A model generated the notes under the pieces. It saw only the letters and a list, made by a program, of their open reading frames with translations, searched no databases and was not told where the DNA came from. Shown in pieces: positions 10,718 to 55,721 of a DNA stretch of 64,000 bases. The position numbers were made by a program, and so were the translations under genes. Position 1 is the first letter of the stretch. Each line of letters begins with the position of its first letter. This DNA is from a virus, in the IMG/VR virus record IMGVR_UViG_3300026189_001009, positions 1-64,000 of that record; one strand, given 5' to 3'.

Positions 10718-10828
10718 ATGAAAGACCCATTAAGTTATAAAATTAAAAAAATAGTTGAATGGTTATTGATTCAACAAGTTCCAGCTATTCTGGTAATATT
10801 ATTCCTAATTTACTACTTTTTATTCTAA
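10718..10828 (+). CDS. 36-aa single-TM protein
   Basis: Manual translation MKDPLSYKIKKIVEWLLIQQVPAILVILFLIYYFLF. Confidence 0.45.
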   Translation: MKDPLSYKIKKIVEWLLIQQVPAILVILFLIYYFLF

Positions 10829-28470: not shown

Positions 28471-28495
28471 TTTAAAATAAGGTAAGTATAGTAAA

Positions 28496-29962
28496 ATGTC
28501 TAATAAATTACCATCAAAAACTTTTTGTGCTCTACCTTGGATGCACTTATCAACAAGACCAGACGGCAATATGCGAGTATGCTGTACAGCTAATGCAAGT
28601 AGTGTCGGAGCAACCAATGATAAAAAACATGGTGGACAAGTAGGTGTATTAAAGAAAGATGATGGTGTACCTGCAAACTTAAACAATTCAGATTTAATGT
28701 CATCGTGGAATAATGACTACATGAAGAATGTACGTTTACAAATGTTAAATGGTGAAAAGCCACCAGCTTGTTTAAAATGCTTTAAAGAAGAGGACGCAGG
28801 CCATAACTCAAAACGTATGTGGGAAACTGACTATTGGTTACATAGATACAGTATAGATGAAATTATAGGCGAAACAAAAGAAGATGGATCTATTCCACCT
28901 AAGATTAGATATATTGATTTACGTATGGGATCCAAATGTAATTTAAAATGTATCATGTGTTCGCCACACGATAGTTCACTTTGGGTAAAAGATTGGTTAG
29001 ATGTATATCCTACAATTGAAAATAAAAATTTAAAACAAACTATGGGGTGGGATAACAAAGGTAAAGTACATGGCGCCGCTTATAACTGGCACAAAGACAA
29101 TAAAGTATTTTGGGATCAGTTATATGATCAGATACCTCATATGTATCAACTATATTTCGCAGGTGGTGAGTCAACTATTATTGAAGAACACTACACACTA
29201 TTGGAAGAAGTTATCAAACGTGGTTATGCACACAAGATAGAATTACGTTATAACTCAAATGGTGTTGAGATGCCAGATAGATTATTTGAACTATGGAGTC
29301 ATTTTAAAAGAGTAAGGTTTCATTATAGTGTAGACTCAATTGAAGATATGAATCGTTATATTCGTTTCCCAGCAGATTGGGATAACACAGTTAAGCAGTT
29401 TCATTTATTAGATAATACAGATGATAAAGTAGAAGTAACAATAGCCTGTGCAGTACAGGCCTTGAATATACACTACATACCTGATTTTATCAAATGGAAG
29501 TGGAAACAAAATTTTAAGAAGATAAACATATGGCCATTTGGTGCCGGTATGTTAAACTATCACTTTGTTTATTGGCCAGGACAATTAAATGTTAAAGCAA
29601 TGCCACAATGGATGAAAAACAAAACAAAAGAAAAATATGAAGCATTTTATCCGTGGTTAGAAGAAAACTGGCACTTGTCGGGTGCACCGAGCAAAGAAGA
29701 ATTCATGAATGCCAGTTATGGTATAAAAAGATTAAAAGGCATGATTCAGTTTATGATGAGTGAAGATTGGTCTAGACGTATGCCTGAGTTTAGAGAATAT
29801 ATTACAAAGTTTGATAAACAACGTGGAACAGATTTTGCTAAAACTTTTCCAGATATGGCTGGAATGTTAGATGAATCATTAGACTATAGTGTTAAGCCAA
29901 TCACTGGTGAAAGTGTTGATCAAAAAACTGAGAAAGAATTGGAAGATGGCGACACTATATAG
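28496..29962 (+). CDS. radical SAM protein, N-terminal Twitch domain
   Basis: FCALPW...VCC...CLKC; CNLKCIMC; FAGGE. Confidence 0.9.
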   Translation: MSNKLPSKTFCALPWMHLSTRPDGNMRVCCTANASSVGATNDKKHGGQVGVLKKDDGVPANLNNSDLMSSWNNDYMKNVRLQMLNGEKPPACLKCFKEEDAGHNSKRMWETDYWLHRYSIDEIIGETKEDGSIPPKIRYIDLRMGSKCNLKCIMCSPHDSSLWVKDWLDVYPTIENKNLKQTMGWDNKGKVHGAAYNWHKDNKVFWDQLYDQIPHMYQLYFAGGESTIIEEHYTLLEEVIKRGYAHKIELRYNSNGVEMPDRLFELWSHFKRVRFHYSVDSIEDMNRYIRFPADWDNTVKQFHLLDNTDDKVEVTIACAVQALNIHYIPDFIKWKWKQNFKKINIWPFGAGMLNYHFVYWPGQLNVKAMPQWMKNKTKEKYEAFYPWLEENWHLSGAPSKEEFMNASYGIKRLKGMIQFMMSEDWSRRMPEFREYITKFDKQRGTDFAKTFPDMAGMLDESLDYSVKPITGESVDQKTEKELEDGDTI

Positions 29963-31238
29963 TAAAACATTTTGTCCTTTACCTTTTATGCACAGTCATC
30001 ATTCTGTGGCAGGAAAGTTCAAACCTTGCTGTAATGCCGAGTCACCTCCGCACAAAGGTAATCCTTATACCACCAAAGATCATTCATTGTTTTCTTGGTT
30101 TGACAGTGAACCAATGCAACAGCTACGAAAAGATTTATTAAACGGTGTACAAAATCCTATGTGTAGTGTCTGTTGGAAACAAGAAGCAACTGGAGGAAAA
30201 AGCTATAGGCATAGTTCTTTAATCAAAGTAAGTCAAGATAATGGTGCATTCAAACAATCACATTTAAAAGAACCAAAGATTACTTTTTTAGATTTAAAAT
30301 TTAGCAATGAATGTAACTTTGCTTGTAGAATGTGTGACTATACTAATTCTCATCAGATATTGAAAGACATGGTTGCCTTAGAAGATAGCAATGTAGAATT
30401 ACCAAATCACTGGAGAAGAAGTCCTACGCAAGAAAAATATGCTGATCCTAAAACAGGTATATTCAGCTCATTAACTATAGAAGATGTTTTACGAGCATTG
30501 CCAACAGTAAGAATATTAAAAGTGACTGGCGGCGAACCTATGATTAGCAAACCATTTTTAACACTACTTGACCATGCAATTGAAAAAGGTTACACAGATC
30601 AGATTAACTTATATATTACTACTAATGCAAGTAAGTTCAATGATAGAATCATGAAAAAGATTTTGAAGTTTCGTAAGGTATACTTTACTGTAAGTTGCGA
30701 TGGATATGGCACTACATATGACTATATCAGATATCCTTACACATGGAAGATGTTCAGCAAAAGAATAGTTGACTTTCTTGAAGCACATCAAAATAAGCAT
30801 GATACGATACGATTGGGATTTTCGACAGTACCACAAATTTACAATATAGAAAACATACACAAACTCACTCAATGGATAGCTGATTTAGATAAAAAGTATG
30901 GAGCCATGGACGGTGACGGGCAAAGCAAATGTTTTATATCACATCATATACAAACACATTTATGGCCTACAACTTCAGAGCTACAATATTATAATGCACC
31001 ATTAAGCATATTAAAAAATACACATGATGCCTTACAAAAACTTTTAGAGCAAGATACTAGCAGAGACTTTGAAAGTTTCTTGAATTCTTTAAAACACTCC
31101 ATTGACAATTACAGTGATGTATCATCTGAAACAAACAAAGATATTATAAAAACAACAGTTGACATCGATAAAGTTAGAAATCAAGATTACAGTAATCTAT
31201 TAGAAAAGGAAACAGTAAAATGGCTGAACACTCTTTAG
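29946..31238 (+). CDS. radical SAM protein, N-terminal Twitch domain
   Basis: FCPLPF...PCC...CSVC; CNFACRMC; TGGEP; ATG start at 29946. Confidence 0.9.
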   Translation: MATLYSKTFCPLPFMHSHHSVAGKFKPCCNAESPPHKGNPYTTKDHSLFSWFDSEPMQQLRKDLLNGVQNPMCSVCWKQEATGGKSYRHSSLIKVSQDNGAFKQSHLKEPKITFLDLKFSNECNFACRMCDYTNSHQILKDMVALEDSNVELPNHWRRSPTQEKYADPKTGIFSSLTIEDVLRALPTVRILKVTGGEPMISKPFLTLLDHAIEKGYTDQINLYITTNASKFNDRIMKKILKFRKVYFTVSCDGYGTTYDYIRYPYTWKMFSKRIVDFLEAHQNKHDTIRLGFSTVPQIYNIENIHKLTQWIADLDKKYGAMDGDGQSKCFISHHIQTHLWPTTSELQYYNAPLSILKNTHDALQKLLEQDTSRDFESFLNSLKHSIDNYSDVSSETNKDIIKTTVDIDKVRNQDYSNLLEKETVKWLNTL

Positions 31239-33367
31239 ATAAAACACTGTATCAAAACAAACATAGTTCTTTGTATGACTATGAGTTTCAAAAGCATTTA
31301 GCAAAAGCACCATGGAAAGAATGGTTAAGTGAGTCAGGATACTTTGAAGTCAAGACAGAATATCTTGAAGCTATACACAAATGGATTCATAGTACTGAAT
31401 TAAATGAAATAAAAGGTCTTGATCGCTTTAAACATAGAGATATGATTAGCGGAACAACTCAAGCATTTGATGAAGCATACTATAGATATTCAAGAAAACG
31501 ATTGAGAATTTTAAGAGGTGAATATGCTTATCATAAACGAGTTAACAAAGACTCTGTGAAAAATTTAAATATTGTTAATGACTTTGAGTTTCTTGATGAT
31601 GAACAAGGCAATTACATACCTGTAGAAGAAAACGATTGGGTCATTACAAGTTACCCTTTTTGTGGTAACGGTGGTATACCTCCTCATTGGGATACGTTGC
31701 AAGATGATTGTTTGCAAAAACAAGTACCTATTTTATTAGACTGTGCATGGTTTGGAACTTGTAGAGATATTAATCTTGATGTGAACCATTCGGCTATCAC
31801 GGAAGTATGTTTTAGTTTAACTAAAGGAATAGGATTAGGAAATATCAGATCTGGTATAAGATACTCAAATTATGATGACAAGCTACCAATTAGACAGCAG
31901 AATGAATACAATCATTTGCCACTTGGTGCGGCACAGATTGGTCTATGGCAAATGCAAAAGTTTAGCCCTGACTATGTTCAAAACAAATATCATAAAGTGT
32001 ATGAACACGTCTGTCAAATAAAAAGCATAAAGCCAACGAACTGTATTCATATCGGAGTGTTAGACAAATCACATCCTGAATATGAATATTATCTAACCGA
32101 CAGAGTTCATAGCAAAGTTGGTATGCGTAATGCAGTTAAAGATTTTTACAAAAGAAATCCAGATCCTGTTTTTTGTAAAGCACCATTTACTAGCATATAT
32201 TATAAAGGTGGACAAAATTCAGTAGGATTTTGTTGTGCTCAAGAAGAGACAGTTGAACTAAACAAAGAAAAGTCAGATAATTTGCGTGAATGGTGGAACA
32301 GTGATTACTCAAAAAACTTTAGACAACAGTTTATAGATGGCAAGTGGCCATATGAATGTAGAATATGTGAGTGGCAAGAAAATAATGATATAGATAGTGA
32401 TAGGTCTGGTTTCGATCATATAGATATTGAATATATAGACAACGTAACTGGCAACGATCTAAACAAACCTATATACATAGATTACAGACCAGATAACTTA
32501 TGTAATCTAATGTGTACTATGTGTTCGCCTAGTAACAGTAATCTTATTGAAAAAATTTACAAAGCCAACCCTGAAGTATTTGGAGAACAACAAGACTACA
32601 GCTTTCAACAAGAAACACAAGACAAGATTCTTAAAGACAACATGATTGATAGCGATACAGCATTATTAAAAGTGCTAGGTGGGGAACCAACTATCAATAA
32701 AAAAGTTCATCAAGTATTTGACTACTGTATACAAAATGATTATGCAAAAAACATAGATTTAAAAATGACAACCAATTTTACTAACTTGAACAATACATAT
32801 CAAGCAATAGAAAATTTTAAATCTATAAAAATTCAAGCCAGTTGCGATGGTACTGGTCCTACATATGAGTACATTAGAAAACCAGCTCGTTGGAAAAAAA
32901 TTAAAGAGAATATATTAGAATTTTCTGAAAGATATAAAGATGACAAGAGATTTAGATTTGGAATGAACTGTGTGTTCCAGCCAGTTAATGCATTTACAGT
33001 CAAAGACTGGTTACCGGAACTGTTGACTTTGTATTATGATCAAATGAAAGTGCCAATGGGTAATATGAGCATATTAGCAATTACAGGTCCGGATGGAATG
33101 ACATTTGAATCAATACCACCAAAGTTTAGAGAAATAATTATTGCTGACTTACAAGATGTGCAACAACAATTTAAAAATCATTCGAATGAACTTTTAAAAA
33201 AGAATATCACAAGCATGATTTCGTATGTCAATGATTTTCATAGCTACAAGCCTAGAAAGTTAGAAAGATTTAAAATAAAAACCAAAACATTTGATATTGC
33301 AAAGAAAACGGACATCACAACTTTGCATCCATTGTTTACCGAACTACTTAATTACAATGAAAAATAA
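31220..33367 (+). CDS. fusion: PLP fold-type I domain + Twitch + radical SAM
   Basis: LLDCAW, FSLTKGIG...RSGIR; FCKAPF...FCC...CRIC; CNLMCTMC; LGGEP. Confidence 0.85.
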   Translation: MAEHSLDKTLYQNKHSSLYDYEFQKHLAKAPWKEWLSESGYFEVKTEYLEAIHKWIHSTELNEIKGLDRFKHRDMISGTTQAFDEAYYRYSRKRLRILRGEYAYHKRVNKDSVKNLNIVNDFEFLDDEQGNYIPVEENDWVITSYPFCGNGGIPPHWDTLQDDCLQKQVPILLDCAWFGTCRDINLDVNHSAITEVCFSLTKGIGLGNIRSGIRYSNYDDKLPIRQQNEYNHLPLGAAQIGLWQMQKFSPDYVQNKYHKVYEHVCQIKSIKPTNCIHIGVLDKSHPEYEYYLTDRVHSKVGMRNAVKDFYKRNPDPVFCKAPFTSIYYKGGQNSVGFCCAQEETVELNKEKSDNLREWWNSDYSKNFRQQFIDGKWPYECRICEWQENNDIDSDRSGFDHIDIEYIDNVTGNDLNKPIYIDYRPDNLCNLMCTMCSPSNSNLIEKIYKANPEVFGEQQDYSFQQETQDKILKDNMIDSDTALLKVLGGEPTINKKVHQVFDYCIQNDYAKNIDLKMTTNFTNLNNTYQAIENFKSIKIQASCDGTGPTYEYIRKPARWKKIKENILEFSERYKDDKRFRFGMNCVFQPVNAFTVKDWLPELLTLYYDQMKVPMGNMSILAITGPDGMTFESIPPKFREIIIADLQDVQQQFKNHSNELLKKNITSMISYVNDFHSYKPRKLERFKIKTKTFDIAKKTDITTLHPLFTELLNYNEK

Positions 33368-34643
33368 TTTTTGCATATTACCGTTTATTCATTTAAGCAC
33401 TAGAACAAATGGTGCAATGCAATTGTGCTGTCATGCAAATAGTGGCAGTGGACCTGACTACAGAAAGATTGGATGTAATAGAAAAGACACAGGAGAATTA
33501 GTTTATGTTGATCAAGACAAACCATCAGAATACTGGAATACTGAATACTATAAAAATATTCGTAAAAAGTTTTTGGAAGGCAAAGCCCCTAAAGAGTGTA
33601 GGGCTTGTTATAAAGAAGAAGCGTCAGGCTACAGATCAAAAAGACAATGGGAAAATGAAGAGTGGGCAGAAAAGCTATCATTCGATGAAGTACTTGCAGG
33701 AGTAGAATCAGATGGCACGGCACCTTTTGATATCAAGTATGTAGATATGAAACTTGGTAACAAATGTGATCTAGCCTGTTTGATGTGCAATCCAGGTGAC
33801 AGCAGTTTATGGATACCAGATTACAAAAAGCTAATGGAGTCTGATATTAGCGATGAAAGTAAGAAAGTACTAGAATGGAACAAAACAGATGGAAAACTTA
33901 ATTGGTATAAATCAGATAGTGTATTTTGGGAAGATATTAAAAGTAGATTGGATACTATAAAGAACTTTTATATAATAGGAGGAGAACCAACTATCAATAA
34001 AGAGTTCAAATCATTCTTGGAAATGTGCGTCAAATCCGGCTATAGCGACCATATAAACCTCCGTTTTAATACGAACGGGCTAACGGTGTCAGATGAACTT
34101 GCAGGGCTATACAGCCGCTTTAAAACGTGTTTAATCCACCTTTCTTTAGACGGGATAGCAGAGCATTATAACTTGATTCGTTATCCAAGTAATTGGGAAG
34201 ATATGAAAGAGAAATTAAATCATTGGGATAAAGTTTCAGCTAATATTAAAGTTACAATTGATGCAACTGTAAGTGTGCTAAATGTCATGCACATTGACGA
34301 ATTGATAAGATGGAAAGTAATGCAACGATATGACAAAATCAACTGCTATCCAACTAACAATGGATTAATTGGTATGCACTTTTTACATAGCCCTAATTTT
34401 TTAAATATAACAGTATTACCTAAAGAACTTAAAAAAGAAGTTGAACAAAAAATAAGACATTTAAAAAATTGGATTGATGTAATTGGCGGCGAAGGTTATG
34501 CTAAACTTGATGCCTTGGTTAATTTTATGAACAGTAAAGACAACAGTGATCTTTGGCCACAAACTGTAAAGTATTTAGACAACATGGACAAGATAAGAAA
34601 TACTAATTGGAGATCGGTATTAACAGAATATGAAAACTATTAA
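33357..34643 (+). CDS. radical SAM protein, N-terminal Twitch domain
   Basis: FCILPF...LCC...CRAC; CDLACLMC; IGGEP; ATG start at 33357. Confidence 0.9.
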   Translation: MKNNFCILPFIHLSTRTNGAMQLCCHANSGSGPDYRKIGCNRKDTGELVYVDQDKPSEYWNTEYYKNIRKKFLEGKAPKECRACYKEEASGYRSKRQWENEEWAEKLSFDEVLAGVESDGTAPFDIKYVDMKLGNKCDLACLMCNPGDSSLWIPDYKKLMESDISDESKKVLEWNKTDGKLNWYKSDSVFWEDIKSRLDTIKNFYIIGGEPTINKEFKSFLEMCVKSGYSDHINLRFNTNGLTVSDELAGLYSRFKTCLIHLSLDGIAEHYNLIRYPSNWEDMKEKLNHWDKVSANIKVTIDATVSVLNVMHIDELIRWKVMQRYDKINCYPTNNGLIGMHFLHSPNFLNITVLPKELKKEVEQKIRHLKNWIDVIGGEGYAKLDALVNFMNSKDNSDLWPQTVKYLDNMDKIRNTNWRSVLTEYENY

Positions 34644-36129
34644 GGAAAGACACAAATACAAACCAGAAGATTTATACTATCAAAATCTTTCTGAAAAGAA
34701 TGATTCATGGTGTCCACTACCTTGGGCTCAAGTGGCTGTTCATAATTCAGGAGAATACAGAAGTTGTATACAAGCAAGAACTTGTAAAAAAACAAAAGGT
34801 ATTTTGAAAGATGATAATGACAATGTTATGAGAGCAGATACGCATTCAATTGATGATGTAAGAAATGCTCCTTTACTAAAAGATGTTAGGAAGTCTATGC
34901 TTGACGGTGAACGTCATAGTATGTGTGTTCGTTGTAACGATGAAGATGATGCTAAGATGGCCTCGAGAAGAAGAAATGCTATTAGAGAATACTATAACAA
35001 ATATAACTATGATTATTGGAAAGCTGAATCAAGCACAATGCCTGATGGTACTTTAGTTATAGATAAAGCACCTGTCTTAGAATGGGATATTAGATTAGGA
35101 AACCTTTGCAATATAAAATGTAGAATGTGCCATCCTAGTGAAAGTACACAGTGGTACAATGAATGGTTTGACACAATGTTTCAAGGATTTAAAACTGATT
35201 TTACAAGAGTAGAACTGTTCAAAGACAAAAACAAAGTTAAACTAAAAAATGACATATACCAATGGAATGACATACCTTATTTCTTTGATCAATTTGACGG
35301 TTCAGCTTCGGGTACAAAAAAAATATACTTTTCCGGAGGAGAGCCAACACTAGTAGAAAATATGTATACTATGTTACAAAAATTAATTGATGCCGGCATA
35401 TCAAAAGATATGGAACTAGAGTATAACATCAATCTAACCAACATACCCAGAAAAGCAATTGAGCTATGGCACGAATTCAAAAGTGTACAAATTGGTGGAA
35501 GTATTGATGGCATTGGTGAAACTAACGATTTTATTAGATATCCTGCAAAATGGAAAAAGATTCAAGAGAATATAGAATGGCTTGATGTTAATACCAAACC
35601 GAATATTAATATGTTTAATACATTTACATGGCAAATATTAAATGCAACTCAAGTATTTGATCTAGTTAAGTGGCAAATAGAAAACAATTTTGTTAAGTTT
35701 AATAGAACTGTTAACAGTGTTTTCTTTAGTATGCATTTTTTACACTCTCCATCATACTTAAATGTTAAAGCATTACCAAAAGAATTAAAAGAACACGTAC
35801 AACAAGAGTTTGAAAAGTTTGATAACGAATGGTTTAAACCTTGGATAGCAAAAGCTGGCAAGAATTATAGGTTGAAAAATCAATCATATCAGTTTAGTAT
35901 TGATGAATGGAACAAAGGACAGTTATGGGATGATGATCCACATGAATACTATTTAAAATTTAAAGACAAAATGGAATCTATGTTAAAGTTTATGTGGAGT
36001 GAAGATTTATCACATGATTTTAACACATTTATTGAGATAACAACTAAACAAAACGAGTATAGAAAACAAACAGCAATGTTTGAACGATTATATCCGGAAA
36101 TAAGTACATATATAAGAAGGAACAAATAA
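34630..36129 (+). CDS. radical SAM protein, N-terminal Twitch domain
   Basis: WCPLPW...SCI...CVRC; CNIKCRMC; SGGEP. Confidence 0.9.
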   Translation: MKTIKERHKYKPEDLYYQNLSEKNDSWCPLPWAQVAVHNSGEYRSCIQARTCKKTKGILKDDNDNVMRADTHSIDDVRNAPLLKDVRKSMLDGERHSMCVRCNDEDDAKMASRRRNAIREYYNKYNYDYWKAESSTMPDGTLVIDKAPVLEWDIRLGNLCNIKCRMCHPSESTQWYNEWFDTMFQGFKTDFTRVELFKDKNKVKLKNDIYQWNDIPYFFDQFDGSASGTKKIYFSGGEPTLVENMYTMLQKLIDAGISKDMELEYNINLTNIPRKAIELWHEFKSVQIGGSIDGIGETNDFIRYPAKWKKIQENIEWLDVNTKPNINMFNTFTWQILNATQVFDLVKWQIENNFVKFNRTVNSVFFSMHFLHSPSYLNVKALPKELKEHVQQEFEKFDNEWFKPWIAKAGKNYRLKNQSYQFSIDEWNKGQLWDDDPHEYYLKFKDKMESMLKFMWSEDLSHDFNTFIEITTKQNEYRKQTAMFERLYPEISTYIRRNK

Positions 36130-36130
36130 T

Positions 36131-37876
36131 ATGCAACCAAATGATTTATACGATTGGGTACCAGATAAAGGCGATAGAGCACCAAATCATAAAGATATAC
36201 AGCTTTGGAGAGACGAAAAAGGTCGCACTATGTTTGAGTATGGCAGAGTTGATAGACTAGAACTAGAATTTAACAACACTTGCTTTTTATATTGTGGAGG
36301 ATGTGGTAGAACATTCAATCCAAAGATTGAAGCGGCAGGAAAACGAATTATTTCGTTAGAAGATATTAAAAGATTCTTTCCACCGGAGTTTTGTAAACAG
36401 CTAAGATGGTTTTTAAGTTGTGGTAACTACGGAGAACCAGCCGCACACCCAGAAGCATTAGAAATTCTTAGATGGTTTAGAGACAACGGAACTAAAAATG
36501 TTTCATTTAGTTCAAATGGTAGTTCTAGAGATCCTGCATTTTGGAAAGAAGCCGCTGAAATTATTAATGGACCGGGCGGATCTAGAGATAATATTCAAAA
36601 CTACTATGGCGGTAGAGTTACTTTTAGTATTGATGGCTTAGAAGACACTAATCATTTATATCGTATTGGTGCAAAATGGGATAAGTTAATGGCAAATACA
36701 GAAGCATTTATCAATGCTGGCGGTAGAGCAAGATGGCAGTTTATTACATTCAATCATAACTCACATCAATTGCAAAAAGCTAAAGACATGGCTAAAGAAC
36801 TTGGGTTCAGTGAGTTTATTGAGAAGATGAGTTTTAGATTTATACCAGTACGTTTAGGTAAACGTCATGCAGAGCAATTGGCCGACGAGGCGGAAATGGC
36901 AATGATCAAAGAAAAAGAAGCCAGAGTAAGAGCTGAAAAAAATGATCTGCTTGATCCTAGTTCTGGTAGAGTTAAACACAAACAAGAAGAATTAGAAACT
37001 GAACACAAAATGGTTAAAAAAATGGGTGGCGTAACTGAACACGTAATCAACATTGATGAAGAAAGAAAGAACAGACATCCTGACAGAGAAATGTTAGCGG
37101 CACAAAGAGCTAAAGGTACCAAAGGTGTAAAAGGTGTTGACCATTTTTCACAAAAGCATAAAATTGTTTGTCAAAATAGAACAGAACCAAGAATTTATGT
37201 TAGCTTTGATGGTAAGGTTTGGCCTTGCAACTGGTTAGGTGGTATAGAATACTATGAAAGAGATAAAAATCCTTACAAGCAACACTGGCCAATACCTAGT
37301 ATGGTACACCATGGTCCTGAAAACGGTGTGCCTATGGACTTCAATAGTTTGTATGCACAAGATCCAAATGATCCAAGTCCAGTTAAAACAATATTAGAAA
37401 GTCCATGGTACAGTCATTTACTTGAAGAAGACTGGCAAAGATCAGATGATCCTAACGGATCTTTACAACCAGCCAAGTGCAAACAGATGTGTCATACAGA
37501 ATTAGGTACAGGTATATTTGAAAAGATGCGTAGAAACGAACAAAATTTAAAGACTGGCGAGTATAGTGATGTAGCTAAAACACATGGACTGACACCACCA
37601 CAAGGTGGATCAGGATTTGGTCCAGGCTCAGCTATGGAAGTTGATGAAAGCAAAATGTTTAAAGTTGAGGACATTGTTGCAAATGAAAATTATGATACAA
37701 ACGAAGAAGGTAAAATTATTGATGAAGATGATGTTAGATTTTACAAATATTATAAAGAAGTAGCGCCTGGAAAGTTTGTTACAACTAGGGTTGATGATGA
37801 AAGAGGCTATAAAAATTTTGAGAAACATACTCTAGAGAATCACGAGCACAGGCATGATCACGACAAAGATGACTAA
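36131..37876 (+). CDS. radical SAM protein, C-terminal Twitch-like, with insertions and His-rich tail
   Basis: CFLYCGGC; CGNYGEP; VC...WPC...CKQMC; HEHRHDHD tail. Confidence 0.88.
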   Translation: MQPNDLYDWVPDKGDRAPNHKDIQLWRDEKGRTMFEYGRVDRLELEFNNTCFLYCGGCGRTFNPKIEAAGKRIISLEDIKRFFPPEFCKQLRWFLSCGNYGEPAAHPEALEILRWFRDNGTKNVSFSSNGSSRDPAFWKEAAEIINGPGGSRDNIQNYYGGRVTFSIDGLEDTNHLYRIGAKWDKLMANTEAFINAGGRARWQFITFNHNSHQLQKAKDMAKELGFSEFIEKMSFRFIPVRLGKRHAEQLADEAEMAMIKEKEARVRAEKNDLLDPSSGRVKHKQEELETEHKMVKKMGGVTEHVINIDEERKNRHPDREMLAAQRAKGTKGVKGVDHFSQKHKIVCQNRTEPRIYVSFDGKVWPCNWLGGIEYYERDKNPYKQHWPIPSMVHHGPENGVPMDFNSLYAQDPNDPSPVKTILESPWYSHLLEEDWQRSDDPNGSLQPAKCKQMCHTELGTGIFEKMRRNEQNLKTGEYSDVAKTHGLTPPQGGSGFGPGSAMEVDESKMFKVEDIVANENYDTNEEGKIIDEDDVRFYKYYKEVAPGKFVTTRVDDERGYKNFEKHTLENHEHRHDHDKDD

Positions 37877-38964
37877 TGAAGAAAGACAGAATCATATATC
37901 CAAAGTGCATGGACAAGACAAAACCCAAGGCAACGTATATTACACATGATGGTTATGTAAGGCCTTGTTGTTTTTTACATAGGCACAATGCCGTTGAAGG
38001 CGATGAAAGATGGCTTAATGATGATAAGCACAACTTACATTCCGGAAAGTCTATGAAAGAAATATTTGAAACAGAAGAATATATAGATTTTTTTGAAAGA
38101 TTGCGAACTGGTAAAAATATTCCAGAAAGATGTATTGATGTATGTAAGAATTCTAAAAGAAGCTTTAATGTTGTAGGTGGTTCAAACGATACACGTAAAG
38201 AAAGAAAAATTGAAGGACTAGAACAGTATCAAGCATTTCATGATACAAGTGACCACTATGAAGATGAATATAGTGTAAAACATAAAATACAAATCGATGC
38301 TACTCATAGGTGTAGTTTATCGTGTTCAAAATGCAACAGATTTATTAAAGACTTTAAAGATCACTATACTGGTAAGAAACATAAATTGGGTCATCATGTT
38401 CTTTTAAAAGATGAAGTTTCAGTTGAACACTTTACAATGATTATAAAAGAAGTAAGAGCAGTTGCTGACCGTATAGGAAAGCATATACCTGATGTAGATT
38501 TTTGTGGTACTTGGAGTGACGCCATTTATCACCCAGACTTTATTGAGCTTGTCGAGGTAGCAAAGAAACATGACTTCGCAGTTTCGATTGCAACGAACGG
38601 TTCTCGGAAAAAAGACAGTTGGTGGGACAAACTATATTCATTGCTTGATCCTAAGTATGACAGTGTTGTATTTGGAATGGATGGCCTTAAAGACACAGCA
38701 CACATATATCGTAAAAATATTAAATTCGATGATGTTGTATATGCAATGGGCAAAGGTGGCGAACTTGGATTTAGTAAAAACAAATGGCAGTTTATAGTTT
38801 TTAACTTCAATGAGCATCAAGTCAATGAAGCGATACAATTATCAAAACAGCTTGGAATAAAATTTGAAACAATTAAGTCAGCGAGATGGTCAGGACCTGA
38901 CGATCCTTTAATGCCGTCGAAAGCATGGTTACCACAAAGTGTAATAGAGGAATATAATTTGTAA
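37876..38964 (+). CDS. radical SAM protein with permuted (N-terminal) Twitch-like domain
   Basis: PKC...RPCC...CIDVC precede CSLSCSKC; CGTWSD, FGMDG, WQFIVFNFNEHQV. Confidence 0.88.
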   Translation: MKKDRIIYPKCMDKTKPKATYITHDGYVRPCCFLHRHNAVEGDERWLNDDKHNLHSGKSMKEIFETEEYIDFFERLRTGKNIPERCIDVCKNSKRSFNVVGGSNDTRKERKIEGLEQYQAFHDTSDHYEDEYSVKHKIQIDATHRCSLSCSKCNRFIKDFKDHYTGKKHKLGHHVLLKDEVSVEHFTMIIKEVRAVADRIGKHIPDVDFCGTWSDAIYHPDFIELVEVAKKHDFAVSIATNGSRKKDSWWDKLYSLLDPKYDSVVFGMDGLKDTAHIYRKNIKFDDVVYAMGKGGELGFSKNKWQFIVFNFNEHQVNEAIQLSKQLGIKFETIKSARWSGPDDPLMPSKAWLPQSVIEEYNL

Positions 38965-40052
38965 TGTTTAAAACACAAGACATCGATGAAATTATGATTG
39001 AGATTACAAGTAATTGTAATGCTATGTGTTTGGACTGTGGCAGAAACCTTGACGGAGTAAAATTAAATCCAAATTTAAAATTTGGCCATGCAGGTAATAT
39101 GAAACTAGAAGCATTTAAAAAAGTATTTGATCCAGCAGTTTTGCCTAAACTTGGCAAAATACATTTTGATGGAAACTTTGGTGATAGCATGATACACCCT
39201 CAAAGCATGGAGTTCATCAAACACATGGCAGAAAACTTTCCTGGAATAGAATTAGAAATTAATACCAATGGTGGTTATCATAGTACTGATTGGTGGAAAG
39301 AACTCGGCGAAGTAACATCTAAAGCATTTAATGAAGAAACTGAAATTAAGTTTGGTATTGATGGTATTGATAATGAAACACATGACAAGTATAGAAGAAA
39401 TGTTAAGTTTGATAAGATTATAGAAAATGCCAAAGCATTTATTGACGCAGGCGGAAAAGCATCATGGAAATTTTTGGAATTCGATCATAATCATCATCAA
39501 CGTGATGAGGCAGAAAAACTTGCTAAAAAATTAGGCTTTAATAAATTTCGTGTTAAAAAAACGAGATGGAGAGAAAAAGCCATAAGAAAAGCAACTGGCG
39601 AAGAACAATTTATATTTGGTAATGCTAGTAAAAAACATAGCAAAGAAAAATATGGTGGTATTCCAGATACACAACAAGCATACGTAGATAAAGTCAAAGA
39701 GCAGTTAAAACAGTTTAAAGATTTTACAAATGAATGTAAAATAGAATGTCCATGGTTACAAAGACTAAGATTGCAAATTGAATATGATGGTAGGGTATGG
39801 CAATGCTGTCATTTAAGTGGTAGATATGGTAGTGGTACAGGTTTTGCTAACGAGCAGTATCAGTATTATATTGATAAGCATGGAACTGAATGGAACAATA
39901 TTAATAACAACGATCTTGAAACTATACTAAATCATCCATATTGGGATGACCTACATAATAGTTTTGACAACAAAACAACAGATAAAAACAATCCAAGAAT
40001 AGTTAGATGTGCTGAAAAGTGCGGTCAAGGATTAGAAGAGTTAACAAATTAA
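38964..40052 (+). CDS. radical SAM protein, C-terminal Twitch-like
   Basis: CNAMCLDC; GNFGD; C...WQCC...CAEKC. Confidence 0.9.
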   Translation: MFKTQDIDEIMIEITSNCNAMCLDCGRNLDGVKLNPNLKFGHAGNMKLEAFKKVFDPAVLPKLGKIHFDGNFGDSMIHPQSMEFIKHMAENFPGIELEINTNGGYHSTDWWKELGEVTSKAFNEETEIKFGIDGIDNETHDKYRRNVKFDKIIENAKAFIDAGGKASWKFLEFDHNHHQRDEAEKLAKKLGFNKFRVKKTRWREKAIRKATGEEQFIFGNASKKHSKEKYGGIPDTQQAYVDKVKEQLKQFKDFTNECKIECPWLQRLRLQIEYDGRVWQCCHLSGRYGSGTGFANEQYQYYIDKHGTEWNNINNNDLETILNHPYWDDLHNSFDNKTTDKNNPRIVRCAEKCGQGLEELTN

Positions 40053-40053
40053 T

Positions 40054-41364
40054 ATGTCAGATACATTTTGCCCAATACCTTGGATATTTCAAGCAGTAAG
40101 AAACAATGGTGACGTTCGTATATGCTGTCAAGCAAACGTAACTAAGAACCAAGGTGTAGTCAGACACCCAGATGGAACTTCTTACAATGCTGGTAAAGAT
40201 AACATGGCAGATGCCAGAACAGCAGATTTTATGAATGTTGTACGTAAGAATATGTTAGAAGGTCGTTGGAGTGAAGAATGTGGTAGATGTAAAAGTGAAG
40301 AAGACTCAGGGCTAACAAGTAGAAGACAATATGAACAGCACTGGAACTTTAAACTAGAAGATGCAATTAAAGTTACTAACACTGATGGATCGATTAACAC
40401 TAATGACGTACCTTTGGTATATTACGATTTACGTTTTGGTAATCTTTGTAACTTAAAATGTAGAATGTGTGGTCCAACTGACAGTCACAGTTGGTATGAA
40501 GATTGGTTGCAACTGTATGGTGGTGATGGATTTAAAGACACACACGGTTACGTTAAATTACAAAAAAATAAAAAAGGTAGATTAAGCACTACTGATTACG
40601 ACTGGCATACCAGTGAAAAGTTTTGGGATCATATTGAATCAAATATTCCTAGCATGGAACACGTTTATATGGCAGGCGGCGAACCACTTATGATTGAAAG
40701 ACATTATGACTTTTTACAAAAGTGTGTTGATATGGGTCAAGCAGAAAAGATGAGTATCGAATATAATACTAACATGACAACTTTACAACCTAGGGTAATA
40801 GAATTATGGAAACATTTTAAATCAGTTATAATAGGTGCAAGTGTTGATGGTTATGGTCCTGTTGTAGAATATCAAAGATACCCAGCGAAGTGGTCGATGA
40901 TTAATAAAAATTTACAACAGATCGATGAGCTAGGACCAAATATTAGAGCTTGGTTGGCTTGTACAGTTACTACTTTAAATGTATTTCATATACCAGAATT
41001 CATGAAATGGAAACTACAAGAAAGCAACTTTAAAAAAATAAACTCAAGTAAAAAGAATCCTATTCTAACAATACACGTTGCACACTCACCAGCAACAGCC
41101 TGTATACAATCAATGCCTTTGGAAATGAAACAATTAGTTAAAGAAAAATATGATGACTTTAAAGATTGGTTAATCAACGAAGACTTGCCTGAACACGTAG
41201 TACAATCAGGTCTAAAAATAATCAATGATATAGTTACTTTTATGATGAAAGAGGATCGTTCAGAAAAGTGGGATTGGTTTTGTGAGTACACTAGACAGAT
41301 AGATAAGTTAAGAAATCAAAATATATTAGATGTAGTTCCAGAATATAAAAAATATTTTGATTGA
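40054..41364 (+). CDS. radical SAM protein, N-terminal Twitch domain
   Basis: FCPIPW...ICC...CGRC; CNLKCRMC; AGGEP. Confidence 0.9.
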   Translation: MSDTFCPIPWIFQAVRNNGDVRICCQANVTKNQGVVRHPDGTSYNAGKDNMADARTADFMNVVRKNMLEGRWSEECGRCKSEEDSGLTSRRQYEQHWNFKLEDAIKVTNTDGSINTNDVPLVYYDLRFGNLCNLKCRMCGPTDSHSWYEDWLQLYGGDGFKDTHGYVKLQKNKKGRLSTTDYDWHTSEKFWDHIESNIPSMEHVYMAGGEPLMIERHYDFLQKCVDMGQAEKMSIEYNTNMTTLQPRVIELWKHFKSVIIGASVDGYGPVVEYQRYPAKWSMINKNLQQIDELGPNIRAWLACTVTTLNVFHIPEFMKWKLQESNFKKINSSKKNPILTIHVAHSPATACIQSMPLEMKQLVKEKYDDFKDWLINEDLPEHVVQSGLKIINDIVTFMMKEDRSEKWDWFCEYTRQIDKLRNQNILDVVPEYKKYFD

Positions 41365-41388
41365 TTTATTTAAAAAAGTGTGTATAAT
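41361..41388 (+). promoter_or_regulatory. sigma70-type promoter upstream of tRNA-Glu/mtnN/fpr
   Basis: TTGATT-N16-TATAAT. Confidence 0.55.
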
Positions 41389-41397
41389 AAAAACTGT

Positions 41398-41472
41398 GGT
41401 CCCTTCGTCTATCGGTTAGGACAGCGGTTTTTCATACCGCAAAGAGGAGTTCGATTCTCCTAGGGACTACCA
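41398..41472 (+). tRNA. tRNA-Glu (TTC)
   Basis: GGTCCCT/AGGGACT acceptor stem, GCGGT-TTTTCAT-ACCGC arm, GTTCGA, CCA. Confidence 0.93.
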
Positions 41473-41502
41473 AATTTGAAACAGAACTCAGGAGGAAAAT
41501 GA

Positions 41503-42078
41503 GTGTACAACAAAATTGCAGTATTAGTGGCTTTGCCAGAAGAACTAAAAGGGATAGCAAATACTTTCTATACAAATGTAGGCAAAGTAAATGCAACAAT
41601 GAAAACCTTACAAGTAATAAACGAATTTAACCCAGATATGATAATTAACTATGGAACAGCAGGCACAGTAAACAACAAGCATAGTGGACTAGTTGAAGTT
41701 GATGTGATCGTACAACGTGATATGATAACAGAACCACAAGCACCGAGAGGTGTTACTCCATTTGAAAAAGACAATACTGCCGGACCTATAATGTTAAACA
41801 CAGGAACAAATATTACACTTGGAACGGGAGATAGCTTTGTACAAGAACATGATCCATGGTTTGAATATGCTAATATTGACATAGTTGATATGGAAGCATA
41901 TGGAATAGCTAAGGTTTGTCAATTGAACAACACGCCTTTCAAATGTTTCAAATATGTTACAGACTTTGCAGATAAGAATGCAATGGAAAATTGGACAGAA
42001 AATGTTAGTAACGGCCAACAAGCATTTACTGAAAAGTTTAATCAGTATGATGCTCAAATGGAATTATTTGAGTTATAA
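41503..42078 (+). CDS. mtnN: MTA/SAH nucleosidase family protein
   Basis: ALPEE, VGKVNA, INYGTAG, TGDSFV, VDMEAY, KYVTDFAD. Confidence 0.88.
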   Translation: MYNKIAVLVALPEELKGIANTFYTNVGKVNATMKTLQVINEFNPDMIINYGTAGTVNNKHSGLVEVDVIVQRDMITEPQAPRGVTPFEKDNTAGPIMLNTGTNITLGTGDSFVQEHDPWFEYANIDIVDMEAYGIAKVCQLNNTPFKCFKYVTDFADKNAMENWTENVSNGQQAFTEKFNQYDAQMELFEL

Positions 42079-42090
42079 CGAAAGAGAGAT

Positions 42091-42852
42091 ATGGCTATAA
42101 ACAAAGAAACAGTAACAGAAGTCAAGCACTGGTGTGATAAAACTTTTAGTTTTAAAACTACTAGAGATCCTGGCTTTAGATTTAACAATGGTGAATTCGC
42201 AATGATGGGATTAGAACATGAAGGTAAAAAAATACTTAGAGCTTACAGTGTTGCATCAGCTAACCATGAAGAACATTTAGAATGGCTATCAATTAAAGTC
42301 GAAAATGGTGAACTAACATCTAAATTACAAAATTTAAAAGTTGGTGATACAGTATTAGTGAATAGTAAAACAACTGGCACTTTAGTTATTGATTATCTAT
42401 TACCGGGACGTAATTTATATCTAATAGCAACAGGAACAGGACTTGCTCCTTACATGAGTATTATCAAAGATCCTGCAACTTATGATAGATTTGAAAAAGT
42501 AATACTAACGCATACTGTACAACATCCTGAAGAACTTGCATACCATGAAGAGCTTAACTGGTTCAATGAAGAATGGAAAGAAGTAACACAAGGAAAATTT
42601 AGATACTTCAATACATTAACACAACAAGATTGGCCCCGTACAGGTAGAATCACTGAATGGATAAAAAATGGTAGATTGTTTTCAGATACAGCAGGACAGA
42701 GCTTAGATGTAGAAAATGATAGATTTATGGTATGTGGTTCGATGGGACTTAATACAGATTTAATGGAACATTTTAAATCATTAGGAATGAAAGAAGGTAG
42801 CACTTCAACACCGGGTTTTTTTGTAGTAGAAAAAGCCTTTGTAGAAAAATAG
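42091..42852 (+). CDS. fpr: ferredoxin/flavodoxin-NADP+ reductase
   Basis: FSFKTTRD, RAYSVAS, ATGTGLAPY, MVCGS, VVEKAFVEK. Confidence 0.95.
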   Translation: MAINKETVTEVKHWCDKTFSFKTTRDPGFRFNNGEFAMMGLEHEGKKILRAYSVASANHEEHLEWLSIKVENGELTSKLQNLKVGDTVLVNSKTTGTLVIDYLLPGRNLYLIATGTGLAPYMSIIKDPATYDRFEKVILTHTVQHPEELAYHEELNWFNEEWKEVTQGKFRYFNTLTQQDWPRTGRITEWIKNGRLFSDTAGQSLDVENDRFMVCGSMGLNTDLMEHFKSLGMKEGSTSTPGFFVVEKAFVEK

Positions 42853-42860: not shown

Positions 42861-43412
42861 ATGAAAATTTTATTGACTGATATTGACGGAGTACTACTCG
42901 ACTGGTCCGGACACTTTAACAAATATTTAAAAACTTATCATCCGGAGTTAGGATTAATGAATCCAACAGAGTTTAATCAACATTCAGATATTGCAAAAGT
43001 AATGCAAAACTTTAATCGATCTGCCTGGCTTGGTTATCTAAAACCTCATAAAGATGCGGCAGAATTATTACCGGAATTTAAAAAAGCAGGGTATGACATT
43101 ATTTGTTGTACTGCTATGGGGCATGATCCTTATTCATATTCTTTAAGAAAACAAAATTTAGAAAATGTATTCCCAGGATTAATCAGTAGAATGGATGTTA
43201 CTGGTTTTGGAGAATCAAAAGCTGAGTGGTTATCTCAATACAAAGGAAGTGGAGCAATTTGGGTAGAAGATAAATGGGCCAATGCTAAAGCAGGAGCCGA
43301 TACGGGGTTAAATACATATTTAATGAGGCATGAATATAATGCCAGCCAGGATTACACTGGTGTAAAGAAAGTTGATAATTGGGTACAAATATATAATGAG
43401 AATGCTATTTGA
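42861..43412 (+). CDS. HAD-family phosphatase/5'-nucleotidase-like (T4 30.2-like)
   Basis: LTDIDGVLLDW, WVEDK. Confidence 0.8.
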   Translation: MKILLTDIDGVLLDWSGHFNKYLKTYHPELGLMNPTEFNQHSDIAKVMQNFNRSAWLGYLKPHKDAAELLPEFKKAGYDIICCTAMGHDPYSYSLRKQNLENVFPGLISRMDVTGFGESKAEWLSQYKGSGAIWVEDKWANAKAGADTGLNTYLMRHEYNASQDYTGVKKVDNWVQIYNENAI

Positions 43413-49000: not shown

Positions 49001-50488
49001 ATGAAAATAGACTTTACATCTAATATAAACGAACTAACATCAAGTTGTGAAATTCACTTTTTGTATAAAAGTGGCGATGACTTTCATCTTACAGAATCTG
49101 CAAAGCAAGTAGATGAAAAAACAAACGGATTAATTACTAAAACCATTACTAAAAATAATTATAAAGGTAAGTTCGGTACAGGTTTTTTTATTACAACAGA
49201 TACTTTACAAAGTGACGAAGCATTAATTGTTAGTATAGATGATAAAGATAAATTTAATCAACTTAAAGCAAAAAAAGTAGGCTCAGCAATTTACACTATG
49301 TTACAAGACAGAGGCACAACAGGTAATGTTGTAGTTCATGCTGATGACACTATTGAAAAAAATATGGCTTCTCAAATTGGTTTCGGTTTGTTGTTAAAGC
49401 AATATAGCTTCAACAAATATTTTACTGGTAAAAAAATACCTAAAGTAAATGATTTTGACGTCTATATCAAAGATGACAATGGTCAGTTATTAACCTTTCA
49501 GGCATTATCAAACATGGCTGACAGTATTGCATTTACAAAGGACTTAATATCTGAACCATCAAACATATTATATCCAGAGTCTTATGCTGATAGAATTAAA
49601 GAGCTAGAAAAAATAGGACTAAAGGTTACAGTTTATGGAGAAAGAGAATTAGAAAAACTTGGATTAACTGCTTTGCTATCTGTAGGACAAGGTAGTGCTA
49701 GAGAATCTAAAATGGTTGTAATGGAATGGAACGGTGCACAAGATAATACTCAGCCACTTGCACTAGTCGGTAAAGGTGTCACATTTGATACAGGAGGTTA
49801 TTCAATCAAACCTTCTAAAGGAATGGGCGACATGAAATATGACATGGGTGGATCAGCAGTTGTTGTTGGCACTATGATGTCATTAGCATTAAGAAAAACA
49901 CCAAAGAACGTAGTTGGCGTTGTTGGGTTAGTAGAAAATATGGTATCTAGTACAGCATACAAGCCAGGTGATGTAATTAATTCATTAAGTGGACAAACAA
50001 TTGAAATTGATAACACAGATGCTGAAGGCAGAGTTGTATTAGCAGACTGTTTATATTATACGCAAAGAGAATTTAAACCATCTGCAATGGTTAACTTGGC
50101 AACATTAACAGGAGCAATATCAGTAGCACTAGGAGATCAAATTGCTGGATTGTTTTCCAACAACGACAAGTTAAGCAATGAACTTTTAAAAGCAGGTGAA
50201 ACAACAGGAGAAGATCTTTGGAGATTACCTTGTGATCCAATTGGTGAGAGATATGACACCTATGTAGATTCTTCAGTTGCAGATATGCACAATGTAGGTA
50301 AAGGTTATGAAGCAAGTTCAACAACAGCGGCACAATTTTTACAAAGATTCGTAAATGATACACCATGGGCACACTTAGATATTGCAGGTGTTACATGGAA
50401 TGACAAAGGTTCAATGACAGCATCCGGTGGTGCAACAGGCTGGGGTGTTGAGTTATTAAACAAATGGATAGACAACAAAATTGAATAG
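49001..50488 (+). CDS. pepA: leucyl aminopeptidase (M17)
   Basis: VGKGVTFDTGG, MKYDMGG, NTDAEGR, WAHLDIAG. Confidence 0.95.
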   Translation: MKIDFTSNINELTSSCEIHFLYKSGDDFHLTESAKQVDEKTNGLITKTITKNNYKGKFGTGFFITTDTLQSDEALIVSIDDKDKFNQLKAKKVGSAIYTMLQDRGTTGNVVVHADDTIEKNMASQIGFGLLLKQYSFNKYFTGKKIPKVNDFDVYIKDDNGQLLTFQALSNMADSIAFTKDLISEPSNILYPESYADRIKELEKIGLKVTVYGERELEKLGLTALLSVGQGSARESKMVVMEWNGAQDNTQPLALVGKGVTFDTGGYSIKPSKGMGDMKYDMGGSAVVVGTMMSLALRKTPKNVVGVVGLVENMVSSTAYKPGDVINSLSGQTIEIDNTDAEGRVVLADCLYYTQREFKPSAMVNLATLTGAISVALGDQIAGLFSNNDKLSNELLKAGETTGEDLWRLPCDPIGERYDTYVDSSVADMHNVGKGYEASSTTAAQFLQRFVNDTPWAHLDIAGVTWNDKGSMTASGGATGWGVELLNKWIDNKIE

Positions 50489-55172: not shown

Positions 55173-55721
55173 ATGAATCAACATATCATGATAGATTTGG
55201 AAACCCTAGCCACTACAATTGACGCCAATGTCTTGACAATTGGTGCATTGAAGTTTGATCCAAGACAAGACTACACTGATTGGAAATGGGGAGACTTTCC
55301 TATTGATCAAGTATTTTATCGTAGGATTAATCCTGAAACTGGCACAGCAATTGGATTAAAAAATGATGATGAAACAATTGGTTGGTGGGCAAAGCAAAGC
55401 GATGAAGTAAAAGCTGAAGCATTTTCCGACGAACATAGATATTCAATTGATGAAGTATTTAGAGATTTTTACAAATTTTGTCTTACTGGAAAGTATTTTT
55501 GGGCTCAAGGTGTTGCATTTGATACTGTGATATGTGAGCAAGTATTTAAAAAACTAAACCGCGGTGCTCCATGGATGTTCTATAACCTGAGAGATACAAG
55601 AACATTATTTGATCTTGTAGATCCGCAAATGCCTAAAGCATTACATCACCATGCATTATTTGATTGCTGGAGGCAAACTATTGGAGTACAAAATGTCTAC
55701 AGAAAATTACAAATCAGTTAA
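55173..55721 (+). CDS. DEDD 3'-5' exonuclease (DexA-like)
   Basis: MIDLETL, WAQGVAFD, RDTRTL, HHALFD. Confidence 0.9.
   Translation: MNQHIMIDLETLATTIDANVLTIGALKFDPRQDYTDWKWGDFPIDQVFYRRINPETGTAIGLKNDDETIGWWAKQSDEVKAEAFSDEHRYSIDEVFRDFYKFCLTGKYFWAQGVAFDTVICEQVFKKLNRGAPWMFYNLRDTRTLFDLVDPQMPKALHHHALFDCWRQTIGVQNVYRKLQIS

Follow-up and report, generated by a model that had tools for sequence, protein, structure and literature searches.

The DNA examined here comprises bases 1–64000 of the 123,631-bp IMG/VR virus record IMGVR_UViG_3300026189_001009, and this 64,000-nucleotide stretch is called the window throughout. In the window, an array of radical S-adenosylmethionine (SAM) genes is followed by a gene for a nucleosidase of the MtnN type (mtnN) and a gene for a ferredoxin/flavodoxin-NADP+ reductase (fpr). 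The locus thus raises the question of whether the virus supplies its own radical SAM enzymes with iron–sulfur (Fe–S) clusters, electrons and the removal of inhibitory by-products, as the preliminary description had proposed. The gene identities and the plausibility of these roles stood up to our analysis, but a co-selected scaling of the helper genes with the array did not. With modest confidence, we favour a loose, lineage-specific accumulation of radical SAM helper genes over a fixed module. What we report below on gene identity, on catalytic residues and their conservation, on gene neighbourhood and on co-occurrence was observed directly.

The DNA comes from a large uncultured marine T4-like phage with a biosynthetic island in which genes for radical SAM enzymes are numerous. 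It was recognized as a large T4-like phage because its record encodes a family-B DNA polymerase (PolB) and a gp44-type clamp loader and its relatives contain RegA, clamp-loader subunit A and UvsX-type genes. Metagenome runs from marine samples or seawater contain near-identical DNA (part of the stretch is present in 20 rows that come from 11 studies, two of these studies possibly being the source), and a megablast search with 10 kb found none in deposited phages. The GC content is 33.7%, the plus strand carries 157 of the 180 open reading frames (ORFs) called by a simple script, and the completeness estimated by CheckV is 23%.

The radical SAM array, the nucleosidase and the reductase

The genes in question and their immediate surroundings are the following:

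27391–41364, + strand: ten tightly packed radical SAM genes of the N-terminal-twitch and SPASM types, the proposed clients
41361–41388, + strand: sigma-70-like promoter match TTGATT-16-TATAAT (10/12), in the sole gap between genes, immediately ahead of the tRNA
41398–41472, + strand: tRNA-Glu (anticodon UUC; gene ttc) found by ARAGORN, 33 nt after the end of the array at 41364
41503–42078, + strand: compact MTA/SAH/5'-deoxyadenosine nucleosidase-family protein (MtnN/Pfs-like), 191 aa
42091–42852, + strand: bacterial subclass-I ferredoxin/flavodoxin-NADP+ reductase (Fpr) with the domains FAD_binding_6 (PF00970) and NAD_binding_1 (PF00175)
42861–43412, + strand: HAD-like hydrolase directly after fpr, with weak HAD matches and a match of 117 bits to phrog_420 (unknown function)

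Matches to PF04055 and/or SPASM were found in nine of the ten ORFs of the array. The tenth, at 36131–37876, has no Pfam match, yet it aligns with radical SAM homologues of related phages. The last gene of the array (40054–41364) encodes a radical SAM protein with an N-terminal twitch domain (N_Twi_rSAM NF033640, 392 bits against a cut-off of 170). Across the whole record, there are 12 radical SAM genes and 11 PF04055 matches, two of the genes lying beyond the window at 69161–70144 and 87438–88760. The ARAGORN and Pfam results confirmed that mtnN and fpr follow the last radical SAM gene with the tRNA-Glu alone in between. Meanwhile, the sigma-70-like promoter that had been ascribed to them is well placed, but such sites do not exceed chance in this AT-rich region (92 found against 97.1 ± 9.9 in shuffled sequences). 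The promoter was therefore rejected as support.

The ORF of the nucleosidase starts with GTG, preceded by AGGAGG 7 nt upstream, and its product matches PF01048 (PNP_UDP_1) with 58.9 bits against a cut-off of 25.1. When the single sequence was compared with the PDB, all 40 matches were nucleosidases of 5'-methylthioadenosine (MTA) and S-adenosylhomocysteine (SAH), here called MTANs. With a profile of 24 phage homologues, 41 of 41 matches belonged to the MTAN family, the best being 4pr3 (E 1e-21). A model produced by AlphaFold2 from the same 24-homologue alignment reached a pLDDT of 86.6, and every match listed by Foldseek for this model was an MTAN or a futalosine hydrolase (TM-score on the query 0.62–0.79). 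Residues E14 (in P-E-E), E131 (in D-M-E-A) and D154 (in S/T-D) are invariant in the 24 phage homologues and align with the corresponding catalytic residues of 4pr3, 3eei and 3bl6, which we take to be E12, E174 and D197 in the E. coli numbering. The fold, the family and the Glu/Glu/Asp catalytic set are thus common to the phage protein and the bacterial MTANs (MtnN/Pfs; 4pr3, 3eei, 3bl6, 1jys). The phage protein differs from them in being about 40 residues shorter (191 aa against about 230 aa), and the alignments begin near chain residue 36–49. It should be noted that it stays under every NCBIfam equivalog cut-off (PRK05634, 90.3 against 129; PRK07164, 83.8 against 161; PRK05584, 63 against 169).

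The assignment as mtnN was borne out by the family match, the MTAN-only PDB matches and the retained catalytic residues, and we read the protein as a predicted active member of a compact MTAN subfamily. No PHROG family was found for the nucleosidase or for Fpr. Among deposited phages, five records were matched by the nucleosidase at the protein level; these matches are few and mostly dubious, the best being Phage C48C1 (41.7%). Two contigs named 'Acinetobacter phage MD-2021a' were rejected as phage carriers of the nucleosidase as they look cellular.

The two-domain architecture of Fpr and its end-to-end match to solved bacterial ferredoxin-NADP+ reductases (FNRs) likewise upheld the identity proposed for fpr. 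Full-length similarity was found to 4f7d, 6rr3, 1a8p, 2bgi and 2qdx (E 1e-70 to 1e-79), and residues 5–252 align to 4f7d with an E-value of 4.5e-79. The residues R50-A51-Y52-S53 and G115 to P120 (G-T-G-L-A-P) are invariant in 12 sequences; we take R-x-Y-S to be the FAD motif and G-T-G-x-A-P to be the NADP motif. The protein thus resembles the subclass-I FNRs of Azotobacter (1a8p), Rhodobacter (2bgi), Pseudomonas (2qdx) and Burkholderia (4f7d) over its full length, and differs from them in being encoded by a virus and in having no PHROG family. It is far from the E. coli type (PRK10926, 137 bits against 390; 1fdr, E 1e-30). At the protein level, 10 records of deposited phages were matched, none of which is a convincing phage gene except perhaps that of Pseudomonas phage Y12. 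The closest cellular proteins in a genome scan were those of Ca. Thioglobus (65–67% identity) and of marine alphaproteobacterial single-cell genomes (58–62%).

No homologue of the HAD-like hydrolase was found beside mtnN or fpr in the fetched relatives, and its membership in any module is doubtful.

Nucleosidase genes and radical SAM genes in related phages

Relatives of the nucleosidase were collected by a scan of IMG/VR, and the neighbours within 4 kb were clustered for the best 80 of 87 (34–57% identity). Radical SAM genes were detected with a local profile based on the paralogues within the window and with the CxxxCxxC motif, which other radical SAM families can escape. For the counts of co-occurrence, 45 records were compared, namely our own record (G000), 18 chosen through the nucleosidase (about 30 kb or more), 3 through Fpr and 23 through PolB (57–76% identity, about 30 kb or more, from 80 loci kept). 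Most of the 45 records are fragments, which weakens absences.

The proposal that the presence of mtnN tracks the number of radical SAM genes across related phages failed. The density of radical SAM matches was 5.2 per 100 kb in records with the nucleosidase and 5.7 per 100 kb in those without it (Mann–Whitney U test, p 0.82, n = 45), the 19 records of the first group containing 70 matches in 1.35 Mb and the 26 of the second 139 matches in 2.43 Mb. The complete 210-kb genome G011 encodes the nucleosidase and has one radical SAM match. The nucleosidase is missing from G021 (328 kb with terminal repeats, 22 radical SAM matches) and G043 (323 kb, 90% complete, 19 matches), and none of the 23 relatives chosen through PolB encodes it.

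The surroundings of the nucleosidase genes are those of a replication module. PolB lies just downstream at 28 of the 80 loci; RegA and clamp-loader subunit A occur at 21 loci each, Hsp20 at 14 and gp44 at 13. Directly upstream, a D12-class N6-adenine DNA methyltransferase (Dam-type) was found 12 times and a phosphoribosyltransferase 11 times. Meanwhile, a radical SAM gene was present in the fetched flank of eight of the 80 loci, within 3 kb at five and within 1 kb at three; among the 27 loci whose two flanks each reach 3 kb or more, it lay within 3 kb at three. Together with the missing association, these neighbourhoods weigh against a support role confined to the array. In marine T4-like phages, mtnN is a general replication-module gene and not a dedicated radical SAM partner. 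In our own record, a phosphoribosyltransferase at genome 94211–94801 (coordinates marked genome are those of the whole record) was considered as the type that neighbours the nucleosidase and was rejected, the identity being 24% over 83 residues.

The same neighbourhoods are an argument for an alternative in which the nucleosidase and Fpr are general auxiliary metabolic genes (AMGs) for host takeover, unrelated to the array. The nucleosidase would then serve adenine salvage and the removal of SAH arising from DNA methylation and replication, and Fpr would serve the NADPH/redox balance, oxidative-stress defence, iron release or Fe–S assembly. The available parts of published virome studies agree with this in listing mtnN as an AMG of the SAM cycle (PMC7678222, PMC9356048). 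However, neither a Dam-type methylase nor MetK was found in the 123 kb of our own record, although these absences are weak as the record is about 23% of the genome. Another argument against this alternative comes from locus L020, a 79-kb viral contig, where the nucleosidase gene (9738–10274) sits between two radical SAM genes within 8317–11529. Its reading frame overlaps the stop codon of the upstream radical SAM gene, and only 2 nt separate its end from the following one. It is translationally coupled to radical SAM genes; the upstream gene is 66% identical to the window gene at 28496–29962. In addition, Fpr occurs, among the 45 records, only in those rich in radical SAM genes. We regard the explanation by general AMGs as unlikely for the two genes.

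Positions beside radical SAM genes are not limited to L020. At L039/L041, L043 and L001, a radical SAM gene lies 0.9–2.8 kb from the nucleosidase, and in the nucleosidase tree the radical SAM-adjacent copies fall into at least three clades. Their clustering on the tree did not differ from that of shuffled labels (174 of 500 shuffles were as low). Our reading is that the nucleosidase is a general enzyme of SAM by-products and adenine salvage in marine T4-like phages which has repeatedly been placed beside radical SAM genes.

Reductase, flavodoxin and Fe–S genes in related phages

The other genes considered here are the following:

8892–10100, + strand: SufS-family cysteine desulfurase (TIGR01979, 494 bits against 475.1; PF00266, 430 bits)
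15412–15975, + strand: Nfu-type Fe–S carrier with Nfu_N (PF08712, 94 bits) and NifU (PF01106, 97 bits) domains
15975–16283, + strand: DUF59/SufT/PaaD-like Fe–S assembly protein (PF01883, FeS_assembly_P, 58 bits)
18990–19802, + strand: FA_desaturase-family di-iron enzyme (PF00487, 63 bits), an alternative client of Fpr
22013–22618, + strand: member of the NADPH-dependent FMN reductase family (PF03358, 51.9 bits)
62581–63186, + strand: second member of the NADPH-dependent FMN reductase family (PF03358, 57.7 bits)
genome 70361–70810 (L088:7361–7810), beyond the window: short-chain flavodoxin (PF00258, 113 bits), immediately preceded by the radical SAM gene at 69161–70144
genome 81805–82134: A-type Fe–S carrier (TIGR00049, 100 bits against 58.8), homologous to the carrier of L085/L086
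genome 100022–100240: glutaredoxin

The preliminary description had named SufS, NfuA, SufT and two flavodoxin-fold genes in the window. SufS was confirmed by a score above the TIGR01979 cut-off. The gene taken for NfuA does encode an Fe–S carrier, but it is not NfuA itself (TIGR03341, 39 bits against 269), its Nfu_N N-terminus pointing to the NFU1 type. Similarly, the SufT assignment holds as SufT-like and not as the equivalog (TIGR02945, 108 bits against 143.4). The genes at 22013 and 62581 turned out not to be flavodoxins, both belonging to PF03358 (FMN_red), and the real flavodoxin lies beyond the window. It is the sole Flavodoxin_1 match in our own record (genome 70379–70759); its best NCBIfam matches are the FMN domain of CysJ, the flavodoxin PRK08105 and MioC, all under cut-off.

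Fpr, recognized by PF00175, was found in six of the 45 records (G000, G019, G020, G021, G024 and G027), each with 5–22 radical SAM matches. At least five such matches were present in all six records with Fpr, compared with 10 of the 39 without it (Fisher's exact test, p 0.001; Mann–Whitney U test on density, p 0.0015). Flavodoxin_1 co-occurred with Fpr, being present in 5/6 Fpr-positive and 0/39 Fpr-negative records (Fisher's exact test, p 5e-6). The two genes are 1.7 kb (G027) to 47 kb (G019) apart. The flavodoxin gene abuts a radical SAM gene in G000 and L173 and lies two genes from a radical SAM pair in L082 and L172. In L083 and L172, fpr immediately follows a gene for a 460-aa twitch radical SAM protein, and in L173 a radical SAM gene is one gene away.

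Several observations weigh against taking these counts at face value. Fpr without Flavodoxin_1 occurs in the complete genome G021. The counts of Fpr and flavodoxin are not independent events because the Fpr-positive records are close relatives with one Fpr clade. G019, G024 and G027 are PolB relatives at 65–69% identity, and G020 and G021 have the same gene order around fpr. In the Fpr tree, all eight phage Fprs (8/8) fall into one clade (support 100/99) together with metagenomic proteins and Ca. Thioglobus. As to the claim that Fpr tracks the number of radical SAM genes, the raw association thus held, though confined to close relatives. In this clade, the Fpr of Ca. Thioglobus (L175, L176) branches from among the phage and metagenomic proteins, which hints at a transfer, in either direction, between these phages and bacteria of the SUP05/Arctic96BD-19 type.

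The FA_desaturase genes tracked Fpr as well as the radical SAM genes did, being present in 5/6 Fpr-positive and 4/39 Fpr-negative records, and in L081, L082 and L083 the second gene downstream of fpr is a homologue of the desaturase. Membrane desaturases need an external electron chain. An alternative is that Fpr and the flavodoxin mainly feed di-iron oxygenases of the FA_desaturase family and other O2-dependent tailoring enzymes of the island, the position of fpr behind the array being incidental. However, the desaturase of the window lies 22 kb from fpr, G027 (74 kb) has Fpr and flavodoxin beside radical SAM genes and no desaturase, and Fpr is missing from G030, G012, G015 and G039, which do encode a desaturase. 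In addition, the usual electron donors of desaturases of the FA_desaturase family are ferredoxin or cytochrome b5, and no ferredoxin (PF00111, PF13187, PF00037) was found in the 123 kb of our own record, which is about 23% of the genome. This absence also counts against the proposed support of the radical SAM enzymes. We consider desaturases improbable as the main clients. Since they track Fpr equally well, Fpr may serve the whole island of redox enzymes and not the radical SAM enzymes alone.

The neighbours of fpr vary from contig to contig. In L173 (13161–15526), which belongs to G027, the order of genes is peroxiredoxin, GMP-reductase-like gene, fpr, RpiB, radical SAM gene and flavodoxin. 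The peroxiredoxin of G027 is 81% identical to that at genome 92589–93170, and its GMP-reductase/IMPDH-family gene is 78% identical to that at genome 93184–94299. In L085 (5513–6669) and L086 (101–1257), the gene of an A-type Fe–S carrier (PF01521) overlaps the start of fpr. Both arrangements speak for the general-AMG explanation introduced above, and the overlapping carrier also counts in favour of the helper roles. In L081 (7306–12166), a carbamoyltransferase and a UDP-glucose/GDP-mannose-dehydrogenase-like gene lie upstream of fpr, with genes for a 221-aa unknown protein and a desaturase-like protein nearby; these surroundings suggest that the island tailors a sugar or a sugar nucleotide. 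ORFs of the same lengths as in L081 are found upstream of fpr in L082 and L084, the comparison being one of lengths only.

Of the Fe–S genes, which had also been expected to follow the density of radical SAM genes, only a part did so. NifU-domain genes, present in 7/45 records, were associated with it (p 0.007), and SufT-like genes (9/45) were borderline (p 0.055), while A-type carriers (10/45) and strong SufS matches (5/45) showed no association in the 45 records.

A score of six helpers (without mtnN) correlated with radical SAM density in all 45 records (Spearman 0.43, p 0.003; 0.40 when our own record was left out) and in the 22 records of at least 60 kb (rho 0.53), all of these values being uncorrected for kinship. 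All seven helper categories come together in a single record among the 45, our own. These two results, and the nucleosidase embedded in the radical SAM array of L020, would fit a dedicated, co-selected support module of mtnN, fpr and Fe–S genes whose presence scales with radical SAM copy number. Nevertheless, we find such a module highly doubtful. The nucleosidase is uncorrelated with radical SAM density, as described above, and the helpers form no single operon, lying dispersed across a span of the record that exceeds 70 kb. None of the seven helpers was found in 5 of the 16 records rich in radical SAM genes (at least five matches), most records being fragments. G043, with its 19 radical SAM matches, has no MtnN, Fpr, flavodoxin, NifU, A-type carrier or strong SufS, and a SufT-like gene is its only helper. 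Conversely, 6 of the 24 records poor in radical SAM genes still have at least one Fe–S helper gene. As radical SAM arrays do well without any helpers, the supply by the host normally suffices. These results agree better with the loose, lineage-specific accumulation of helper genes that we favour.

Proposed roles, precedents and other features of the record

For the phage proteins, the substrates, the partners in electron transfer and the connection with the array are inferred. The nucleosidase would cleave adenine from 5'-deoxyadenosine, the by-product of radical SAM enzymes, from SAH, that of methyltransferases, and from MTA. The 12 radical SAM genes would be the largest source of such by-products encoded by the phage, and together with a SAM methyltransferase (starting at window 21360) they would account for the main ones. 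MTAN is known to relieve the inhibition of BioB and LipA. The phage nucleosidase probably relieves product inhibition of the radical SAM enzymes and returns adenine to the nucleotide pool. It is a general gene of marine T4-like phages that stands beside the array here by chance.

In E. coli, Fpr with flavodoxin or MioC reduces radical SAM enzymes. The phage likewise encodes a short flavodoxin, and its pair may have the same partners. The [4Fe-4S] clusters of the radical SAM enzymes would then receive electrons from NADPH by way of Fpr (FAD) and the MioC/CysJ-like short flavodoxin (FMN), and Fpr may also feed the desaturase-like di-iron enzymes of the island. The clusters would be supplied by SufS, the A-type carrier, Nfu and the SufT-like protein; Nfu-type carriers are known to serve lipoyl synthase. 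The inhibition of radical SAM enzymes by 5'-deoxyadenosine has been described (PMC8102628, available in part).

If the pair and the nucleosidase do serve the radical SAM enzymes of the phage, the virus brings the electron supply, the cluster supply and the by-product disposal for its own enzymes. In the pair, biochemists would also obtain a reducing system that naturally matches the twitch-domain radical SAM enzymes, a large and uncharacterised family otherwise hard to activate in vitro. Only tentatively do we extend this to a near self-sufficient support chain in the phage clade, with clusters, electrons, 5'-deoxyadenosine removal and protection by peroxiredoxin and glutaredoxin, for oxygen-sensitive radical SAM enzymes in a host of the oxic ocean. 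In that case, the virus would bring a pathway along with the infrastructure for cofactor maturation and redox supply.

The idea of a helper kit is partly published. Nishimura et al. 2017 (PMC5332604) described a T4-like marine virus whose genome of 183 kb contains 12 radical SAM genes along with those for an A-type carrier, PaaD (DUF59), glutaredoxin, Cas4 and ClpP, and proposed that viral Fe–S assembly proteins serve virally encoded Fe–S proteins. Our own record contains the same classes (radical SAM, A-type carrier, PaaD/DUF59, glutaredoxin and ClpP). In contrast, SufS, Nfu, Fpr, flavodoxin and an MTA/SAH nucleosidase are not mentioned in the accessible text of that paper. A survey of pelagimyophages (PMC7029224, in its accessible part) placed radical SAM cassettes in the host-recognition cluster, and accessible sections of PMC8940887 discuss viral nifU and sufE. 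For the Lake Baikal population VP_139 (PMC7678222), a viral MTA/SAH nucleosidase was reported alongside MetK, methyltransferases and radical SAM proteins, and mtnN is among the abundant AMGs of the Mariana Trench viromes (PMC9356048). The nucleosidase thus accompanies methyltransferases and radical SAM proteins there as it does here. In the accessible portions of the two papers, these genes are framed as support of the SAM cycle with MetK, and no reductase or flavodoxin is discussed; no MetK was found in our own record. Titles and the beginnings of abstracts yielded no pertinent report of a phage-encoded ferredoxin/flavodoxin-NADP+ reductase or flavodoxin tied to radical SAM enzymes, and the Fpr–flavodoxin pair appears to be new for phages. 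What is new here is this pair, along with SufS, Nfu and the fact that the nucleosidase gene is occasionally inserted into radical SAM arrays.

In one run of an RNA library (X20), 15 short contigs, some with 1–2 differences, fell on an 18-kb stretch. They cover several genes of the array and 43.2–44.4 kb and leave 40.8–43.2 kb uncovered, though contigs cannot show absence and carry-over of DNA is possible. In the DNA runs X4 and X5, the listed contigs end inside the tRNA gene, so that the listed pieces give no independent bridge between the radical SAM gene and mtnN. In the bin 40823–41423, the contig depth leaps to 955 and 684 in two seawater runs, and the listed contigs of both end inside the tRNA-Glu. 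Contig breaks at this place are expected if the tRNA sequence is common to other abundant genomes.

The other genes identified in the record are listed below:

window 2394–3221: cytidylyltransferase fused to the C-terminal cupin of mannose-6-phosphate isomerase
window 3932–4423: PTPS/QueD-like gene, which hints at 7-deazaguanine or pterin chemistry
window 6289–7515: ClpX
window 8634–8870: cluster of tRNA-Val, tRNA-Asp and tRNA-Ala, immediately before SufS
window 10101–10499: full ribosomal protein L7/L12 with both Pfam domains, directly after SufS, with a homologue in G027
window 14375–15340: full-length inner-membrane transporter of the SbmA/BacA family (PF05992, 447 bits), just upstream of the Nfu gene
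window 25397–25987: ClpP
window 49001–50488: M17 leucyl aminopeptidase
window 55651–56769: UvdE UV-damage endonuclease
genome 104619–106850: ClpA/ClpB-like chaperone with two ATPase domains

In IMG/VR, the record of this T4-like phage carries the label 'provirus'. In its last 5 kb (about 118.9–123.2 kb), the gene organization changes to short ORFs on the minus strand, four of which were scanned and gave no Pfam match.

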